Below are positions 2,770-33,359 of a stretch of 64,000 nucleotides of DNA, piece by piece. Within the stretch, counting starts at the first letter, position 1, and each line of letters begins with the position of its first letter. Below the pieces are notes generated by a model. The model saw only the letters and a list, made by a program, of their open reading frames with translations. It made no database searches and had not been told where the DNA came from. The translations under genes were made by a program, and so were the position numbers. Origin of the DNA: Escherichia phage phita32; the sequence record PQ758395. One strand, given 5' to 3'.

Positions 2770-3164
2770 TGATTACAGGTGTGAAGATTATCCAATACCA
2801 CCTAACCAAATTGGAAGATGCTGAAAAAGAGCTTGCAGAAGTTCTGAATAGTGGATATACTTTGTTATCATGCGCCTGCTCAGACACCTACGTTGTGTGG
2901 ACACTTACTAAGAAGGAAGAGCCAGCATGGATCTTAGTGCCAAACCCTAAGATTATTAATGAGGTGGATGACTACTCTCATGACGGCCTGTCGGAAGACT
3001 GGGAAGTATGGGAAGGTGGTGAAAACCCTGCACCAGGTAAGTGGGTAAAATACAAACTACGTAGCGGTGCACAGCACGCTGGATACTCTGATAACATGGA
3101 CTGGAGTCATTCTTCACCGGAATCATTGGTAAGTGCATATGATATCATAGCTTTTAAGGAATAA
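2769..3164 (+). CDS. hypothetical protein
   Basis: ORF translationally coupled (TGATGA overlap). Confidence 0.45.
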   Translation: MITGVKIIQYHLTKLEDAEKELAEVLNSGYTLLSCACSDTYVVWTLTKKEEPAWILVPNPKIINEVDDYSHDGLSEDWEVWEGGENPAPGKWVKYKLRSGAQHAGYSDNMDWSHSSPESLVSAYDIIAFKE

Positions 3165-4475: not shown

Positions 4476-6543
4476 ATTTATGGCATCTGCATACAACCGT
4501 TTCGGTGAGCCAAACCCGAAAGCAACTAAGTATAAAAGTGGGGGAAGTGTGAAACGAGACTATCGTGATGAAAAAGAAGTTGAAACTGTAGAGACTGTTT
4601 TAGAAAATACTAAAATTGTCCCTGTCCCACAACAAAATATCGGTCTGATGGCTGCACAATATTTTGGTGTGCGATCAGCATTGTCCCAAGAAGACGGTGT
4701 GACAGTCACTGCAACATATTTCCCATATTACGACCGCTACGGAAATCTGTCTGGTTTCAAAAAGCGTGACTGGACTATTCCTAAAGAGCAAAGGGGCCAT
4801 TTCTCCGTTGTTGGCATCGTAAAGGCCAACTCCCAGATGTTTGGTCAAAAGCTGTGTGCATCTTCCAACAACCGTAAGCAGATTAACGTTTGTGAGGGAG
4901 AAGGTGATGTTATTGCAGCATGGCAGGCTGCATATCAGATACAAGTAAAAGGGATTCTCACCAACGCTAAAGCCCCGGCAAAGGTGAAGCAGTGGGCTAA
5001 AGAGGTCCAGGACGGGATCGACGCAGTTATCAACGGTGGTGATCTGGCAGGAAAACCATGCCTACCTTTTGTTGGAATTAACTGTGGATGTGCAAACGCA
5101 GTAGATACTTTTGCAAACAATGAGAAGTTTATCCGTAGCTATGGAACAGTTGTGCTGGCAATGGATAATGATGCAGCTAACGAGGTAGAGAAGCAAAAAC
5201 ACGTCATTAAAGGTGTTGAGGCCACGCATAATATCGCAGCATTTTTGATGGCTGATAACGTTTACCACGTAGAATACCCTGGTGAAGTAAATGACCCTGA
5301 CGGTGTAAAAGATATCCGAGACATGCTGAAGGCTAAAAAGCTGGAAGATATTGTCAACATGTTCCGGCACCCTGTTAAATATGTGCCTGATGCTGTGTCG
5401 GATTTAGAAGACTTCTCTATCGAGTCTTTGCGGAAAAAGACTTCCAACGGGGTAGATATCAGCGCAGAGTTCCCAAAACTGCAAAAAATGCTAAAAGGCT
5501 TGCACAAAGGGACACTCGTAATGCTTACAGGCCCGTCAGGTGGCGGTAAAACAACTGTAGCTAAAAAACTGGAACACTGTATTGCAAGATACCTAATGGA
5601 CCCGACATGTCCGAAGGCCGATGACTACGAAGAGGATGATCGTCTATGCATGATCCATCTTGAGGAGGACCCAGAGGAAGCAATTAACTCCTTGTATGCA
5701 AACCAGTTAGGGTTTGATGTTAAAGAGTTTGTTGAAGATCCTAGCCAGTTTTTAACTGATCAAGAACACGCAGAGATTCACCAATCATGGGCAAAAGCTG
5801 GAAAAATCAAAGTGTTCAAACATTTCGGATCTATTCCGGTGGACGAGTTGATTACTAAGCTTAAGCAAATGGTTTGCCTGTACCATTGTCGTTATATTGT
5901 ACTGGATCACCTGTCCATGGTAATTTCAGGGCTTAATGTTAAGGATGAGCGAAAAGAACTGGACATGGCTATGACCCAACTGGCTGCGTTTTGTAAGCAG
6001 TTTAACGTGTTTATCTTGGTGATCGCTCACCTCAAGCGTATAGAGATTGTGCCTCCTAAGGACAAGGATGGTAACCCGTTACCTTTCTGGTATCCTGTGC
6101 GAAAAGAGAATTTGCGAGGATCGGCTGGGCTTGAACAGTTGAGTTGGGTAGTCATAGGTGTCGAGGCCGAAGAAATGGTGGATCGTTCTCGTGGACGTGT
6201 CCGTCTGGTAGGTCTTAAAAACCGTCCAGCAAAAACTTTAGGTATTGCTGACACTTTAGTTATGGACCCTCACACAGGCAAGTTCCATGATGCCAGCAAT
6301 TGGTACTGGGACAAAGAAATGCAGATGTTTACAGACGGAGAAGGTGGGGAGGTTGTTTGGAGACCTCAGGCTATGTTTGAGGATCAGGAGCATACAGTTG
6401 TAGAAACACCTATGGGTAAGGTTGTGGCTGATAAGGTTGTAACTCCTACTGTTAAGCCTGTTGACACGCAGGAAGACCTCCAGTACGATGATCCATCCTC
6501 TGACCCTGTCCCTGGTTTTGAGGACGATGAAACGCCTTTTTAA
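4465..6543 (+). CDS. bifunctional DNA primase/helicase (Toprim + DnaB-like RecA-fold ATPase, T7 gp4-like)
   Basis: Toprim-like VCEGEGDVIAAW and LAMDNDAANE acidic motifs; Walker A LTGPSGGGKTT; Walker B YIVLDHLSM; AAGGAG SD. Confidence 0.8.
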   Translation: MGSKFMASAYNRFGEPNPKATKYKSGGSVKRDYRDEKEVETVETVLENTKIVPVPQQNIGLMAAQYFGVRSALSQEDGVTVTATYFPYYDRYGNLSGFKKRDWTIPKEQRGHFSVVGIVKANSQMFGQKLCASSNNRKQINVCEGEGDVIAAWQAAYQIQVKGILTNAKAPAKVKQWAKEVQDGIDAVINGGDLAGKPCLPFVGINCGCANAVDTFANNEKFIRSYGTVVLAMDNDAANEVEKQKHVIKGVEATHNIAAFLMADNVYHVEYPGEVNDPDGVKDIRDMLKAKKLEDIVNMFRHPVKYVPDAVSDLEDFSIESLRKKTSNGVDISAEFPKLQKMLKGLHKGTLVMLTGPSGGGKTTVAKKLEHCIARYLMDPTCPKADDYEEDDRLCMIHLEEDPEEAINSLYANQLGFDVKEFVEDPSQFLTDQEHAEIHQSWAKAGKIKVFKHFGSIPVDELITKLKQMVCLYHCRYIVLDHLSMVISGLNVKDERKELDMAMTQLAAFCKQFNVFILVIAHLKRIEIVPPKDKDGNPLPFWYPVRKENLRGSAGLEQLSWVVIGVEAEEMVDRSRGRVRLVGLKNRPAKTLGIADTLVMDPHTGKFHDASNWYWDKEMQMFTDGEGGEVVWRPQAMFEDQEHTVVETPMGKVVADKVVTPTVKPVDTQEDLQYDDPSSDPVPGFEDDETPF

Positions 6544-6601: not shown

Positions 6602-9025
6602 ATGAGTATGTGGTCTTTCGATCTGGAGGCCTCCGGGCTTTTGGAAGATCTAGATCTTTATTATCACTGCGGTCTGTTTAAAGAGCTGAATAAGAACCGT
6701 TTTATGCTGTTCCTTCCTCTAAATGACCGCACACACTACTCCAAGGAGGATATAGAGAAGGCCAAGAACTTTATTCTGGCAAAGAAAACTCTTTATAAAG
6801 ATTTTGAAGTCCGCATAGCAGATTTTTCGGAGTTGGAAGGTTGGCTTACAGGCAATTCCGACTGGTCACCAACAGCTTTGAACTGCCATAACTGCTACAG
6901 TTATGACTTTATGCTGATGGAGAGATTATCCGGTATTCATTTTGATATGTTCCGTGATCCTAAATGCATGGGGACTATCAACGACCACCAGGTTAATCTG
7001 TTTGATACGTTGGCGATGAGCCGAATCTTGTGGCCTGATCGCCCTTTACCAAAAGGTTGTCCGGACTCTGTATTCAACCCGGTTACTAAGAAAATGCAGC
7101 CTGTTGGTCCTCACGGCCTTATGGCATGGGGCTACGCCCTTGGTAACCAGAAAGTTCAAATTGATGACTGGCGCGATCTTCCGTTGTGGAAGTATGTGGA
7201 TCGTGTATTCGAGGACGTTATCATCCAGGAGCTGCTCTGGAAAGAGCTGGTAGCGGAATCAAAAGGTGTATTCTACGGCAAATCTGACATGCAGAACTTT
7301 ATGTATGATCCTGCCAAAGAGAAGCCGAAAGGGTTCAAGAAGATCACCTGGAAGAACGCATTACGTCGAGGCATGCTGCAGCACTTCCTGATGGAGCTGC
7401 AGGCCCGTCAGGGTGTATACTTCGACATAGATGGAGCTATTGCTTTACGTGACCGTTGCGATGCGTGGATGAAAGAAATCGCTGATCGTGTTGAACCACA
7501 ACTACCTTTAAAAGAGCTGTCAATGTCTCAGCGGCCCAAGTTCCCTGAAAAGCCGTTTAACCAAGACGGGACAATCTCTAATAATGGTTGGAAATGGTTA
7601 AAAGATAAGCTTGGCTATCCTGTAGACATGAGCGCTTTAGAGTTCAAAGCCCCGCCTAAGCGAGCATTTACCTCTACAGGGGATGTCAGCAAGATGGGGA
7701 TAAAATGGTGTGAAGAGATGGGCTGCAAAGACCCCGATAAGATGGCTGATTTCTTGAGAGGCTATATTAAGGGTACCTCCACACCACAACCTTTACCTAA
7801 AGAGCTAATGGATCAGGCAATAAGTGATCTGCAGCAGAAGCGAATGCCTGACTGCAAGATACCTATGAAAATCGGCAATCAGGACGACATCAAGCGATAC
7901 CTAATCAGTGCTGGTTGGCTCCCAACAATGTGGAGAACTAAAGATGTAACTAAAGACAGCAAGAAGAAAGCTTTACCTGATGCAGATGTTGATGCACGAG
8001 TATATGCATACATGGACGAGCTTTTAGAGTCAGAGTATTGTGACCTGATTATCAACTTCTGGAACAAAACTGATGCTAAGTTTCAGACAACCGTGCACAA
8101 GTTCCGAAGCTTTCCTAACTCCGAAAGGATTAAAAAGGAAGTGTTCGGGAAAATACGTAGAAAAGCCAGGGCACTTATTACTTCTCCGCAACTGAAAGAT
8201 ACGTTTGGACACCTATGCCCAAATCTTGAAAAATTGAACGGAGAGATGGCTAAAGATATCGTCTTGTGGTTATCATTGCGAAACCGCAGATCGGTCCTTG
8301 ATCCAATCAAGGAGGATAAGGTTGATACTGGTCTTCTTAATCACCCACGTTTGAAGATTGACCATAAGCTTCCTGCTAAAAGCTCTGGATTAACAAACAC
8401 TTCCAGACAGAAACACAGTATTTGTGCAAACATGCCTAAACCATCTCCTAAAGTGGTTATGGGTAAAGAGATGCGTAGTCTGTGGGGTGTTCCTCCAGGA
8501 TACTTTGAGATCGGTATTGACGGGTCCAACTTAGAGCAGCTTATCGGGGCTTGGGGTGCCTTTGAGTTCGACAACGGCTTGTATTATGATGTTGTAAGTA
8601 ACGGAGACGCACACCAAAACAATGCTGAGGCATATACAAAAGTAGCAGGCAGAGAGGTGTCCCGTAACGACGGTAAACCTATCACGTATGGGGTTATGTA
8701 CGGGGCACAAAAAGATAAAGTTGCAGATATGCTGGACATCTCTCCAGAGTTGGGACAAAGGGTAATCGATGCACTCTGGGATGCCAACCCAGGTCTTAAG
8801 GGGCGCAAAGAGGATCTGGAGAAATTCTGGGAAGCAACAGGTAAGAAGTTTATCTACTCTTTTGATGGTCATGCTATCTGGACCAGATCTAAACACTCTT
8901 TACTTAATGCATACCAACAAAATGGCGGTGCATCGTTGTGTGACTTAGTTGGAATACTCATGCACCACCAGATGGTGAAGCGTGGGTGGTACGATGAAGG
9001 TGTTCGTCGTATTATTTATTACCAT
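6602..9025 (+). CDS. DNA polymerase, family A, exon 1 (3'-5' exo + palm motifs A and B)
   Basis: N-terminal FDLEASG Exo I-like motif; motif A YFEIGIDGSNLEQL; motif B RNDGKPITYGVMYGAQ; ORF runs 2 codons into intron before stop at 9031. Confidence 0.8.
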
Positions 9026-9301
9026 AAATAACATTGTGGCTTCATAGAGTAATCTATGTCGAATAACCTCTTTAACTGCGGGAAGCCTAAACCTTATGGC
9101 AAGGTAATCCGCAACGAAGCGCTCAAAAGAGCGAACGCTCAGAGGCCATTCCGAAAGGAAGTAGACCAGCAAGTGCGGTCGAAATGGGAGGATTCCTGTG
9201 GTTGCTTATTATAGGAATATGAGATGGTCCGATCCTACGTGAAAACGTATGGCTATGCACGTAATGGTGCGGGGTAGCTTAACGACCTACCTGAACTATT
9301 G
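9026..9301 (+). ncRNA. group I self-splicing intron (no ORF) in DNA polymerase gene
   Basis: Exon 1 ends in U (..UACCAU) pairing with intron GUGG guide at 9037-9040; intron ends in G 9301; P/Q/R/S-like core elements AACTGCGGGAAGC 9074-9086, TAATCCGCAACG 9105-9116, GCTCAGAGGCC 9137-9147, GAGATGGTCCGATCC 9221-9235; splicing restores motif C YHDEYQLQV. Confidence 0.6.
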
Positions 9302-29983: not shown

Positions 29984-30403
29984 ATGAATATTAAATCTAA
30001 CAATCCCGCATACAGCTTTGATAACGCTTTTTGTCACGGCCCAGCCGCAAAAGGTTTTGAAATTGATGGTAAACTGGTTATTGTGAATGTTGACGGGGAA
30101 GAGGTTGCAGTATATCCGGTGGCAGACGTTAAAAGCCGTTTACAATGCCGCATTGATGTTACCGCATATCAGCTTGATCCGGTCCGCGTAGTTGCCCTGG
30201 TCCTGGAGGAAGAAATCAAAGCGATGCACCATAGTAACAGGTTTATTGGTGACGCGCAGGATAATATGAAGGTGTGCCGTTATAAAGTTAATGAAGTGCT
30301 TAAAGAATATGGATTTAAGGATCTGATGATCAAACGTGATGAAAAATTTCGTTATCGTAACGACCTGGCAAATCGAATCTATGAAATATACGAATCATTA
30401 TAA
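29984..30403 (+). CDS. hypothetical protein
   Basis: ORF with AAGAGGTAAA SD; last gene of the rightward array. Confidence 0.5.
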   Translation: MNIKSNNPAYSFDNAFCHGPAAKGFEIDGKLVIVNVDGEEVAVYPVADVKSRLQCRIDVTAYQLDPVRVVALVLEEEIKAMHHSNRFIGDAQDNMKVCRYKVNEVLKEYGFKDLMIKRDEKFRYRNDLANRIYEIYESL

Positions 30404-30421: not shown

Positions 30422-30448
30422 AAGGGGCTTAAAGCCCCTTTCTTTTTG
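30422..30448 (+). terminator. rho-independent terminator
   Basis: AAGGGGCTT-t-AAGCCCCTT hairpin then TCTTTTTG. Confidence 0.7.
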
Positions 30449-30449
30449 T

Positions 30450-33020
30450 CTCCTCTTTTCCTACCACAAACGGCCAAGCCTGGCAAGTGGAATAATTGAC
30501 TAGCCAGCAATTACCAACACTGTACAAACATACATGTAAAATAGCTATTGCATAATATTTCATTGTGTGGTAGCAGGGCCATTTTTACCCGCTTTTCCTT
30601 CCAAAACTGCATGTAATTCCACTATTGCACAAAATTTAACCTGATGCACAATATCTCTTTCTTGTCAACAACTAAAAATCTTTATAAGTCATACACTTAC
30701 ATAACCACAAAAGCGTGTTCTACGTGAAAAATCGGGTATAACTATAGCCACTAAATTCCAGAATTCACGTAGCGTCACCATTCTATAGCCCGCTAAGTAT
30801 TTATTCCGACCATAGAATAACGGAATAGTCAATACCTGCATAAAATAATTATTCGTGTAAACTGCATAACATAAATCAGCTAGGGTGTCAACATTTTTCG
30901 TAAACAGCTTGAAATTATCACGGTGAGTTATCATAAGCAGATAAATCTTTAGTCGTCTAATGTTTACTGTACGTTACTATACTAACTGAAATCATTAGAT
31001 GACTAAGAGAAAGATAAGAAATCATTAACAATGCAATTGTTTTATTCGTAACAATAAGGCAACTATGCAAACGAATGGCATGGCGCGACGGAGTCGCGAC
31101 ATAATATAAAAGCAGTAACCATCACCCCCGTGATAGTTTGTCTGCAAACTATTAATCAGATCATAGTTGCCTTGTATTTAGTTAATCATGACATAAACTC
31201 AGGCATAGCCTTCGTCTCGAGGATGTTAACAAGCAAGGCAACTATAGATCTGCTAATAGTTGCCCTGCTTTTATATTATGTCATAGAAACACCCGAAGGG
31301 GTGACCAAAGGTCACCTGGCATAGCCAGTGAAAGATTATTAACTTGCTAATTGTCAACTTGTTGGCTGTTAGCTTGTCAATTGTAAACTAGTTAATTGTT
31401 ATCATGCAAACGAATGGCATGGCTTATCATCTATGCGTGAACTATCCAGGCGTAAACAGTCTATGTGGGAACAATCTATACGTGAACAGTGAAACATGAA
31501 ATAATAACAGTCGTTATTGTGGCGTATTGTGCTGCAGTATGTCATATTGTGTCAGACAAGTTTTTCTCCTCTTTGTCAAGTGCTGCATGAAAAATTTACA
31601 ATCTTGTATGGTAGCATTTTGCGGCCCTGTTTACATTCAGGAATGTATGTATAATCCTTGTTGTGTGGGCGTTTAGACGTCTGGACGGTCAGAAGTCTGC
31701 AGGTTAATATCTAATCTATTGGCTGCTAACTATATCCCCCACAAATAATAAGAAATATAATTGTTATATGTGTAAACCGTAACTCATGTTATCAATCCCT
31801 GTATGTATCGCCAGTGGTGCGCATAATGGGTATTATGTTAAATTGCCCGTAATGATAACTATTCTCACAATGATAGGTATTCTCATTCACCCCACAAGAT
31901 AGGTTGCAAATGTTGTGCCACTGTGTGAACGGCCTCACCTATTAATTTGCCTCACTGCCTCGATATTTGAGAATTATTATAAGAATGAAAAGTATTCCCA
32001 TTTCGTCCGCCTGGCAGCACTCCAGTCGCTACCGGCTCCTGACAGGGAAGCACTCCTGTAGGACAAGCACAAAATCGTGGTATAACTGGACCTGTTCAGA
32101 TATTTCTGGCTGGCTCTTCAGGTCTGTGTGGGAAAAGTCAACCTCTCTGGCGGGGCAGGGGATCATGACGGGAAAATTGCAGGTCAATTAAAAAATTTAC
32201 GTGGTGTATGAAGCGCTCTTCAGGTAAGGCATGTATTATGGGATGAAACCCTCTTCAGGCAATGATATTTGTGGGTGTGATATTTGCTGGAAAGCCAGAT
32301 ATGACGGGACTCCCGTCGGGGCAGGGGTAGTACAGACAGGGAAAATATGGGGATGTAGTTGGGGAAATTGATCAGACAGGTAGAGTATGGAATATGTTAC
32401 AAGTATGTTAACTATGGAGGGTGAATATCTGTAGGATTTGTGTGTAAAATCAAAGACTTAAGTGGTGTTGTGGTATTTTCTATAAATAATTCAAGTTTAA
32501 TAGGTAATATTTGTCTCTATCCGCTTTGTGTGGTAAACAGATTCAGATGAGATTGGTTTACAAGTGTATACATAATATACAAATTAAAGATACAAGAAAC
32601 CCCCCTCCCCCTTCAGCTACCATTCACCTTTTCCTCTGACTGGTACTTAAACACTTATTCAGACTCTTCAGGTTATCACCCATATATCATATGGCAGTGA
32701 CTGGTGTCCTCCGGCCCCTCTTTCGTCACCCGTCCGCTTCGCCATGCTAATGCCATAGCCAAATGTTCGGTTGTTCACCCTGTTCACTCAGGTGTATCTC
32801 CATACCCCTTCAAACCGAAGAGAACAGAAAACCCGAATTACTCGGTAAAAGAAAAGAGAAGAACTTAATTTTATCAGGATAGGCAAGAATGTCAAGGCAT
32901 GACTGCTCACTAAACAAGCAAACAGTCATGTGTGGTAGGTAAGTGATTGTGGTGGTAGGAAATTTAGTTGAAAGATGTGTTATAGGTGCTTCCAGCACTT
33001 TAGCCGGGCAACTAATTGTG
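30450..33020. other. 2.6-kb ORF-free, repeat-dense region between convergent gene blocks (candidate origin/regulatory or ncRNA locus)
   Basis: No ORF of 60 aa or more except one weak hit; repeat families GGCAACTAT/ATAGTTGCC (x4, 31050-31280), CTATRYGTGRAAC direct repeats (31431-31490), CAAACGAATGGCATGGC (x2), CTCTTCAGG (x4-5), GGGGCAGGGG (x2). Confidence 0.5.
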
Positions 33021-33022
33021 TG

Positions 33023-33238
33023 TCAGTCCAGTGGTTCATCACCTACTTCACTGAAATCGATGTTCATGGTCTCCTCCCAACCATCAATCTCAGCACCAGA
33101 GTAGAGATCTTTAGGACTCACTCCCAAAGCCTCAGCAACAGAATCCATGTTTAACACTTCTGGCAGGTACGATTCATCGAATTCGAGGTAAATCAGGCCA
33201 CGAGTGTTGTCAGCTCCACCAAATATTTCTATCTTCAT
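33023..33238 (-). CDS. hypothetical acidic protein
   Basis: ORF with AGGAGA SD; first/most distal gene of leftward block. Confidence 0.45.
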   Translation of the reverse strand: MKIEIFGGADNTRGLIYLEFDESYLPEVLNMDSVAEALGVSPKDLYSGAEIDGWEETMNIDFSEVGDEPLD

Positions 33239-33359
33239 GAAATCTCCTCTAGAAATGAGAGTGTGAACAGGGTTTTATACGTTCCAATGCACAGGAATTA
33301 TGCACGTTTGCCTCTTCAGGCCATGCTTTAGCATGAGGAACCTGTGTGGGCTCGGTGCT

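Follow-up and report, generated by a model that had tools for sequence, protein, structure and literature searches.

What does a 2.6-kb stretch that lacks genes do in the genome of Escherichia phage phita32? The stretch lies at positions 30450-33020 of the 64,000-nucleotide (nt) sequence analyzed here (record PQ758395), which we refer to as the window. A preliminary description, made from the letters alone, had noted that the region contains no credible open reading frame (ORF), listed several repeat families, and proposed that it might be a replication origin, a packaging or injection-control site, or a large structured RNA. The region is matched at 84-95% identity by 121 phage records, all of them rV5-like (Vequintavirus) myoviruses of E. 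coli, and by this similarity the phita32 window is Vequintavirus DNA. Its counterpart in rV5, at 104016-106565 between ORF163 and ORF164, has an empty feature annotation, and Figure 2 of the 2013 rV5 genome paper presents it as a grey box marked 'non-coding', without further comment. The results described below indicate that the region is probably the terminal region, or concatemer junction, of the Vequintavirus chromosome, a judgement that blends a firm placement of the genome ends with a less certain mechanism.

The genome ends were located from the records of relatives. The record of phage Gotham carries annotated 459-bp repeats at both ends, which are identical to each other and map to window positions 31555-32011. 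The records of Aya, ECP2303, YN3 and Pr121LW have one terminus at the base that corresponds to 31555, and those of bov11CS3 and bov25_3 start at 32011; in all, five records of close relatives begin or finish at the equivalent of 31555 and two at 32011, which gives the fixed ends by proxy. For EdH4 and HdK5, the distance from the neighbouring gene to the end of the record fits the same end. These results indicated that in close relatives the virions contain linear DNA whose ends are fixed, at 31555 on the left and at 32011 on the right. The segment between them, a direct terminal repeat (DTR) of 457 bp, occurs once in the window because the window is in the joined (junction or circularised) form. 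That the terminal repeat and the genome ends of the Vequintavirus chromosome lie in this region is, in our assessment, highly likely.

Published reports on relatives agree with this placement. The Gotham report gives a terminal repeat of 459 bp with doubled read coverage, and for EdH4 and HdK5 terminal repeats of 458 bp are reported. For Klebsiella phage KPP-1, a member of Mydovirus, a 514-bp repeat has been described, detected by coverage and PhageTerm and classed as T7 type. The KPP-1 repeat likewise lies between convergent gene blocks, and its edges, taken unchanged from the published coordinates, align with the edges in the window. Positions 31555-32011 share 93-97% identity with the terminal repeats of Vequintavirus relatives. 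The terminal repeats of these Vequintavirinae (Gotham, EdH4, HdK5 and KPP-1) are thus the same element as the DTR of the window.

Conservation was assessed in an alignment of the window with 16 relatives (17 Vequintavirus genomes), and sharp shifts in conservation coincided exactly with 31555 and 32011. The DTR had 0.046 substitutions per site and no gaps. On its left lies the least conserved part of the region, a tandem-repeat zone (31331-31554) with 0.233 substitutions per site and 27% gaps, and on its right a right-proximal zone (32012-32199) with 0.123 substitutions per site and 16% gaps. Farther to the left, a branched palindrome (31098-31282) was nearly invariant among the relatives, with 0.009 substitutions per site and 22% gaps that reflect an apical insertion, and the left arm (30450-31048) had 0.122 substitutions per site without gaps. 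The right arm, also free of gaps, was conserved like the DTR at 32200-32599 (0.048 substitutions per site) and like first and second codon positions at 32600-33022 (0.020). The third codon positions of neighbouring genes had 0.11-0.34 substitutions per site. By these measures the region is constrained non-coding DNA rather than a group of decayed genes.

The absence of genes that had first drawn attention to the region withstood closer analysis. The longest internal ORFs encode 81, 74, 64 and 62 amino acids (aa), and none survived comparison with the 16 relatives. Every ORF of at least 25 aa was tested in the 17-genome alignment for intactness and for third-codon-position bias, and no internal ORF in 30450-33020 was both intact in the relatives and biased in this way. 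The 81-aa ORF (30689-30934, minus strand) is interrupted by stops in 16 of 16 relatives, and its changes are spread over the three codon positions (144/136/172). The same counts for the genes that flank the region are 24/14/236 (29984-30403) and 38/29/236 (33023-33238). A search of seven internal ORFs against PHROGs and Pfam returned no match apart from one at chance level. The preliminary description had allowed that relatives might carry ordinary protein-coding genes at this position; the relatives have no ordinary genes here.

The repeat families were likewise real and far above chance. GGCAACTAT occurs in both orientations, with four copies in 64 kb compared to 0.42 expected, all within 31058-31264 and alternating in orientation. 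CTCTTCAGG occurs nine times in 64 kb (0.46 expected), with five copies at 32114-33320. Two perfect copies of the 20-nt sequence ATGCAAACGAATGGCATGGC are located at 31065 and 31404, and GGGGCAGGGG..GGGAAAAT, read directly in the sequence, is present at ~32145 and 32319. Three direct repeats had been described at 31431-31490; the repeats exist, but their consensus CTATRYGTGRAAC was one letter too long and has no match even when one mismatch is allowed. The actual unit is CTATRYGKGAAC, at 31431, 31461 and 31476, and these copies belong to a 15-nt-period array of four units. The largest feature of the region, a 185-nt branched palindrome, had been overlooked. Of the roles suggested at the outset, packaging is well supported, as the region encloses both physical ends together with the terminal repeat, and repeat families abut both cut sites. 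Short inverted repeats of 11-14 nt between the outer edges of the region were discarded, as we estimate that about this many arise by chance in 2.7 kb, and a duplicate of TCTCCTCTTT was likewise near chance expectation for 2.7 kb.

The two edges of the DTR carry the same kind of motif on opposite strands (a slash marks the edge). The left edge reads TGTCA/GACAAG on the plus strand and is invariant in 17 of 17 Vequintavirus genomes. The right edge reads TGCCA/GGCGGAC on the minus strand (32005-32016); its outer TGCCA is present in 16 of the 17 genomes (TGCCT in rV5) and is preceded by GGAGYGC. The 12-15 nt just outside the right edge are invariant. These mirrored motifs fit staggered nicks followed by copying of the repeat through strand displacement. 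In such a scheme, replication would join genomes through the DTR, as the sequence suggests. A site-specific nuclease, presumably the terminase, would nick the plus strand after TGTCA (31554) and the minus strand after TGCCA (32012), and each nick would leave a 3'-OH outside the DTR and a 5' end at the first base of the DTR. Strand displacement from both 3' ends would then duplicate the DTR, so that both daughter ends would be complete. By analogy with T7, packaging proteins may assemble on the flanking arrays, which comprise TGTCA units and 15-nt repeats to the left of the DTR and, to its right, CCTGAAGAG repeats with a very conserved arm. By the same analogy, the branched palindrome, which lies 273-457 bp beyond the left edge, may form a hairpin on one strand that takes part in end processing or primes DNA synthesis. 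We give this nicking and strand-displacement mechanism, together with a packaging role of the flanks, an even chance of being correct.

The left flank contains several distinct elements. Closest to the cut site is an array of (T)RTGTCA / ATTGTG units on the plus strand (31510-31554), spaced ~8-13 nt apart and ending in the TGTCA of the edge; its last 5 nt are invariant in the 17 genomes, and the upstream copies vary in number and spacing. Two tandem arrays of 15-nt period, also on the plus strand, lie at 31335-31401 and 31429-31490, the second of which holds the three copies of CTATRYGKGAAC; their copy number differs between relatives through insertions and deletions. Next is a module of three hairpins (31283-31334; CACCC-GAAG-GGGTG, GGTGACC-AAA-GGTCACC and TGGC-ATA-GCCA), which are terminator-like on the minus strand. 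The 20-nt repeat ATGCAAACGAATGGCATGGC, on the plus strand, brackets the palindrome, with two identical copies at 31065-31084 and 31404-31423. Beyond it extends the left arm (30450-31048), which is AT-rich (33-37% GC), non-coding and moderately constrained, has a negative GC skew on the plus strand, and contains no conserved ORF.

The branched palindrome (31098-31282) has perfect 18-nt outer arms (31098-31115 and 31265-31282), which enclose a side hairpin at 31117-31138, a long inner stem with GGCAACTAT/ATAGTTGCC sites, and a variable apex. Its predicted folding is far stronger than expected, with z = -11 as DNA and z = -10 and -7.8 as RNA on its two strands. The minus strand of the window folds 12 kcal/mol better than the plus strand, and the same strand relative to the DTR folds 7-13 kcal/mol better in 10 of 10 genomes, with more G-U pairs. 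This consistent bias points to action as a single strand, of either DNA or RNA. A 33-nt apical insertion (31195-31227) was found only in phita32 and rV5 among 16 genomes. Copies of TTGACA near the palindrome were considered as parts of sigma-70 promoters and rejected, as their spacings were unfit.

Since the palindrome is nearly invariant within Vequintavirus, covariation could not be tested in that genus, and other genera were used instead. The cross-genus comparison was built on GenBank phage records; a scan of IMG/VR with a 26-mer from the edge gave a single contig. DNA homologous to the KPP-1 non-coding region (70-76% identity) was found in Mydovirus, Henunavirus and Seunavirus (PVP-SE1, 4MG, GAP31 and others), in each case within a large gene-poor gap (2.24 kb in PVP-SE1). 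Alignment of five genera, including the window, revealed invariant blocks at both edges, an AAATATC block, a mid-repeat block, and a promoter-like TTGTCA-N18-TACAA(T/A) just inside one edge. The motif TGYYA/GRCGGAC was present at one edge in nine of nine genomes of these five genera; in eight genomes of four other genera, TGCTA or TGTTA is followed by GACGGAC at one edge and by AA(C/A)AC at the other. A branched palindrome was present in every compared genome, with perfect arms of 18-21 nt that lie 116-217 nt apart and 270-330 nt outside the same edge. In the eight genomes of other genera, 6-13 of the inner 18 arm positions had changed and complementarity was complete. The outer arms are perfectly complementary in every genome, without wobble pairs, and the inner hairpins contain compensatory pairs between genera. 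The side hairpin ATCAC-N-GTGAT is distal to the repeat in Vequintavirus and proximal to it in the other genera (loci L021 and L024-L030); the inner part of the palindrome seems to be inverted between the perfect arms in Vequintavirus relative to the other genera.

Within the DTR, a putative sigma-70-like promoter (TTGTCA-N18-TACAAT, 31573-31602, plus strand) lies 18 nt inside the left edge and points into the repeat. Both hexamers and their spacing are kept in five genera, and the sequence of the spacer varies. A mid-DTR block, ATTTAACATAATAC..TTATGCGCAC (31802-31853, motifs on the minus strand), matches KPP-1 with an E-value of 1e-4 and is near-invariant in nine genomes. Units of AATGATAAC..ATTCTCA are enriched in the DTR, with 21 found and 6.3 expected. 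Units that resemble the Fur box of E. coli (TGATAAC-T-ATTCTCA) lie at 31851-31885 and 31984-32000, and in other genera a similar sequence forms a hairpin inside the palindrome (locus L021, 4741-4960). The Fur-box reading of AATGATAAC..ATTCTCA was rejected as coincidence because the matching hairpin in other genera covaries instead of keeping the box.

The right flank begins with the variable zone at 32012-32199, where alternative sequence modules of three types occur among relatives. The CCTGAAGAG repeats, which correspond to the CTCTTCAGG family, lie on the minus strand at 32114, 32216, 32251 and 32664, and at 33312 in the next intergenic gap; two of the copies are near TGTGGG. G-rich duplicates occupy 32143-32176 and 32317-32352. 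CCTGAAG is found outside the same DTR edge and in the same orientation in all compared genomes, including Mydovirus and Seunavirus, except that of an Erwinia phage; in the other genera it is often the loop of a hairpin with a varying stem. The right arm (32200-33022) is non-coding, with no insertions or deletions among relatives, no coding signature and no RNA-fold signal. It contains a strong, putative sigma-70-like promoter on the minus strand (TTGACA-N16-(TG)TAAAAT, 32868-32895), which matches at 11 of 12 positions, has an extended -10 element, and points toward the DTR and the genome end; the stretch around it is 99-100% conserved. All nine exact copies of CCTGAAGAG (2116, 32114-33320, 49941, 58130 and 58997) lie on the locally transcribed strand, and an ATAAT-like hexamer follows three of the five non-coding copies at a distance of 9-11 nt. 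CCTGAAGAG could be an activator box of phage promoters instead of a packaging signal.

A further set of sequences that share elements of the region was found outside phages. When the region was compared with all complete E. coli genomes, the only matches were to a family of 13.2-13.7-kb plasmids, which are non-mobilizable and encode a capsid protein, a baseplate protein and a helix-turn-helix protein; one record of 39.6 kb holds approximately three units. In the reverse comparison, of plasmid non-coding DNA with the phage collection, only Vequintavirus was matched. The three-hairpin module (31283-31334) is 90% identical to the plasmids over 52 nt, with one compensatory pair change in hairpin 2, and is the only strong match of the region outside phages. 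Also shared are two CTCTTCAGG..TGTGGG modules and an edge-like TGCCA/GGC site, after which comes the AAATATC block; in the plasmid locus L031 (NZ_CP035869.1) the shared patches lie at 3001-3052, 4749-4802, 5205-5245 and 5878-5994. From 6.5 kb of one plasmid, these plasmids may be satellites that copy the terminal cis-signals of a helper phage. If so, the shared pieces would be discrete functional elements. Our literature search found no description of a Vequintavirus satellite. A broader and speculative proposal is that the palindrome (150-260 nt, in ten genomes of six genera) is an undescribed DNA element of Vequintavirinae termini, active as a single strand, that primes regeneration of the DTR or starts replication; together with the mirrored nick motif TGYYA/RRC it would represent a separate mechanism by which large myoviruses make short terminal repeats, and the capsid-encoding plasmids would be satellites packaged by these phages.

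Several points weigh against the assignment of the region as a terminal region cut at these motifs. The ends of phita32 itself are assigned by homology, at 93-97% identity. The papers on rV5, PVP-SE1 and phiTE describe circularly permuted genomes, and one 2026 paper reports a PhageTerm headful call for another Vequintavirus. Shigella phage CM1 carries an exact tandem duplication of 523 bp (64 nt of left flank plus the 459-bp repeat; locus L017, 2415-3460), which starts 64 nt to the left of the proposed edge, and phage I29 likewise has one, judged by length. This duplication does not fit the TGTCA/GAC edge; it could be an artefact of rotation or assembly, or these strains may have a longer terminal repeat. 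The 8-nt cut motif TGYCAGRC occurs 11 times in 64 kb, approximately the number expected by chance. Because the motif is not rare, it cannot act alone and other determinants of the cut site must exist; the candidates are the adjacent elements, namely the TGTCA array, the invariant 12-15 nt to the right of the DTR, and the CCTGAAGAG repeats. Nicking, strand displacement and the role of the palindrome are all proposals drawn from the sequence and from T7, and the analysis linked no protein to any of the repeat families.

The setting of the region bears on the alternatives. Both neighbouring gene blocks are transcribed toward it, and its edges are those given in the preliminary description. The rightward block closes with an intrinsic terminator on the plus strand (30422-30448; stem AAGGGGCT/AGCCCCTT at 30422-30440, then a T-run), and the last leftward gene is 33023-33238. 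The last rightward gene (29984-30403) encodes 139 aa and belongs to phrog_12277, whose function is unknown in PHROG. Both of these genes are coding by codon-position bias; both match only PHROG families of unknown function, and neither matches Pfam. The flanking 71-aa protein is restricted to the genus and was therefore unusable as an anchor across genera. Gene 29984-30403 is missing from about half of the 16 relatives and is thus an accessory gene that borders the non-coding region. The arms of the region are AT-rich (33-38% GC). Elsewhere, the window carries a replication module that includes a PIF1 helicase besides a T7-like replisome set, which consists of a gp4-like helicase and a family-A polymerase; no phage RNA polymerase was seen in the 64-kb window. 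A group I intron (Rfam RF00028, 63 bits) at 9016-9251 directly follows the family-A polymerase ORF (6602-9031), and the polymerase gene is probably split by this intron. Of the records that match the region, 19 (GenBank MG0656xx) are named 'Campylobacter phage'; they are 87-93% identical, have the same flanking gene, and are probably mislabelled or contaminant genomes.

A replication origin, in place of packaging or alongside it, is a tentative alternative that we regard as less likely. Under this explanation the 15-nt repeats would be iterons, the palindrome or the three hairpins a priming signal, and a transcript made from a promoter the primer. The 15-nt-period arrays (31335-31490) lie beside AT-rich arms, and the preference of the palindrome for folding on one strand in 10 of 10 genomes would suit a priming signal. 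The T7-like replisome, in a window where no phage RNA polymerase was seen, is also compatible with an origin, as is the recurrence of the three-hairpin module in the non-coding gap of a small plasmid that also holds a perfect DnaA box. In T7, the promoters phiOL and phiOR lie beside the genome ends, at positions that we confirmed on the T7 record, and they serve as secondary origins. However, no initiator gene is recognisable beside the region, where the flanking genes match only PHROGs of unknown function, and DnaA boxes in the window were not scanned for. The change in skew coincides with the switch in transcription direction; the rV5 authors noted this coincidence, and their skew analysis tied the only change to the direction of transcription. 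The tandem arrays, moreover, show the lowest conservation in the region.

A non-coding RNA, or several, is an unlikely explanation; the candidates are a branched RNA of ~200 nt read from the minus strand across the palindrome and a transcript that would start at the promoter running from 32895 to 32868. The palindrome folds far better than shuffled sequences and has compensatory changes across genera; in all genomes the advantage in folding falls to the same strand, which also forms more G-U pairs. The minus strand has terminator-like hairpins at 31303-31290 and 31138-31117, an invariant stretch holds a strong promoter-like site, and phiTE, a distant relative, encodes a functional repeat RNA. 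Against this, a sliding RNA-fold scan of both strands found only 31140-31319, which is the palindrome, at z < -3, and z elsewhere ranged from -2.6 to +1.8; the values are near 0 on both strands outside the palindrome, including in the most conserved arm. The proposal that the ultra-conserved right arm is a structured RNA was dropped, as 32590-32862 had z = -1.4 on the minus strand. With the gathering score as threshold, Rfam 15 returned no match to the region; relaxing the threshold to E <= 5 added only two, both at the level of chance and to eukaryotic or viral models. A scan for tRNA and tmRNA found none in the region. The outer arms pair perfectly without wobble, a pattern to be expected of DNA no less than of RNA. 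Upstream of the palindrome, the minus strand has no convincing promoter, and the tandem period is 15 nt rather than the 36 nt of ToxI-type repeats (type III antitoxin RNAs). With conservation at the level of primary sequence, the large structured RNA suggested at the outset is not supported.

It is quite improbable that the region is a buffer zone of terminators where two transcription units converge and that it plays no part in DNA metabolism. The two flanking blocks do converge on it, terminator-like hairpins are more numerous than expected (eight compared to 3.3), and some CCTGAAG copies in other genera are the loops of true terminator-like hairpins. The rightward block, however, is already closed by a good terminator, 650 nt ahead of the palindrome, and terminators require neither 0.8 kb at 98% conservation nor conserved edges that match physical ends. 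Decayed genes, suggested by small ORFs annotated here in APCEc02, PMBT16 and HMD-6, or an injection stop signal like the repeat-rich non-coding stop region of T5, are very improbable, since no ORF is kept across relatives, substitutions are even over codon positions, constraint exceeds that of third codon positions (the opposite of decay), and two-step transfer of a gene-free DTR of 457 bp would deliver no genes.

The reading of the region as a chromosome terminus explains the 'non-coding' box of rV5-type genomes and shows where these genomes should be opened; the virion DNA is longer than the joined record by one extra repeat. It also bears on a conflict in the literature, in which the type papers (rV5, PVP-SE1 and phiTE) describe circular permutation and read-based notes report fixed repeats of 458-514 bp. 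The conservation of the edge motifs in PVP-SE1 supports fixed ends across the subfamily, suggesting that the older descriptions need revisiting. The link between the 'non-coding' box and the genome ends, the mirrored cut motif, the flanking arrays and the subfamily-wide palindrome were not described in the literature that we found; in their available parts, the reports on Gotham, EdH4/HdK5 and KPP-1 give the length of the repeat only and mention none of these features. The map of cis-elements offers targets for mutation, namely the mirrored nick sites, the TGTCA and CCTGAAGAG arrays, and the branched palindrome, and the plasmid family, if the proposal is correct, would be a new phage satellite. 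Vequintaviruses are common candidates for therapy and biocontrol, and fixed-end packagers transduce little. Genome rebooting, engineering and the assessment of transduction risk all depend on knowing the correct ends and packaging signals.

Among known systems, the pseudo-ToxI locus of phiTE is likewise a tandem-repeat, non-coding locus of variable copy number in an rV5-like phage. It encodes a functional repeat RNA with a 36-nt repeat between two genes, whereas the window has a period of 15 (or 30) nt and no Rfam match, and its arrays abut the genome end. The palindrome recalls, in shape only, the inverted terminal repeats of parvoviruses and the single-strand initiation (ssi) signals of the G4/phiX174 type, in that a long outer stem encloses smaller hairpins, the arms are perfectly complementary, and one strand folds better. 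The apparent inversion of its inner part between Vequintavirus and other genera is reminiscent of parvoviral flip/flop; no such heterogeneity was seen among 16 Vequintavirus genomes, and the palindrome is internal, 273-457 bp from the end, unlike the parvoviral repeats. We know of no Rep-like nickase here.

T5 has a repeat-rich non-coding stop region, and the window resembles it as a repeat- and palindrome-dense non-coding stretch near a genome end. The stop region of T5, in contrast, lies inside a 10-kb terminal repeat that carries pre-early genes, and the terminal repeats of T5-like phages measure ~10-11 kb. With a DTR of 457 bp that contains no genes, unlike the first-step-transfer DNA of T5, nothing suggests two-step DNA transfer here, and the injection-control role put forward in the preliminary description finds no support.

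The closest comparison is with the concatemer junction of T7. No sequence similarity to it was seen, the DTR of the window is three times longer than that of T7, and its palindrome is far larger and branched. The gene blocks beside the window region run toward the ends, whereas the early genes of T7 run inward from the left end. The phage studied here is a myovirus of 136 kb, and no phage RNA polymerase was seen in its window. The organization is nonetheless shared. The T7 record has a 160-bp repeat with 13-nt-period CCTAAAG arrays against both edges, an inverted repeat ~170 nt outside the right copy, the leftward host promoter A0, and a gene-free junction of 1.16 kb; the promoters of the T7 junction also include A1-A3, phiOL and phiOR, and a hairpin DNA intermediate has been reported for T7. 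In both systems a short DTR lies in a gene-free junction (2.57 kb in the window), short periodic repeats (SRL/SRR in T7) abut both of its edges, an inverted repeat is located some hundreds of nt outside one edge, a host-type promoter points toward the end (A0 near the T7 left end), and the replisome is of the gp4/gp5 type. Terminal repeats have already been reported for relatives, and the region is explained by a known kind of structure, a terminal region with short fixed repeats.

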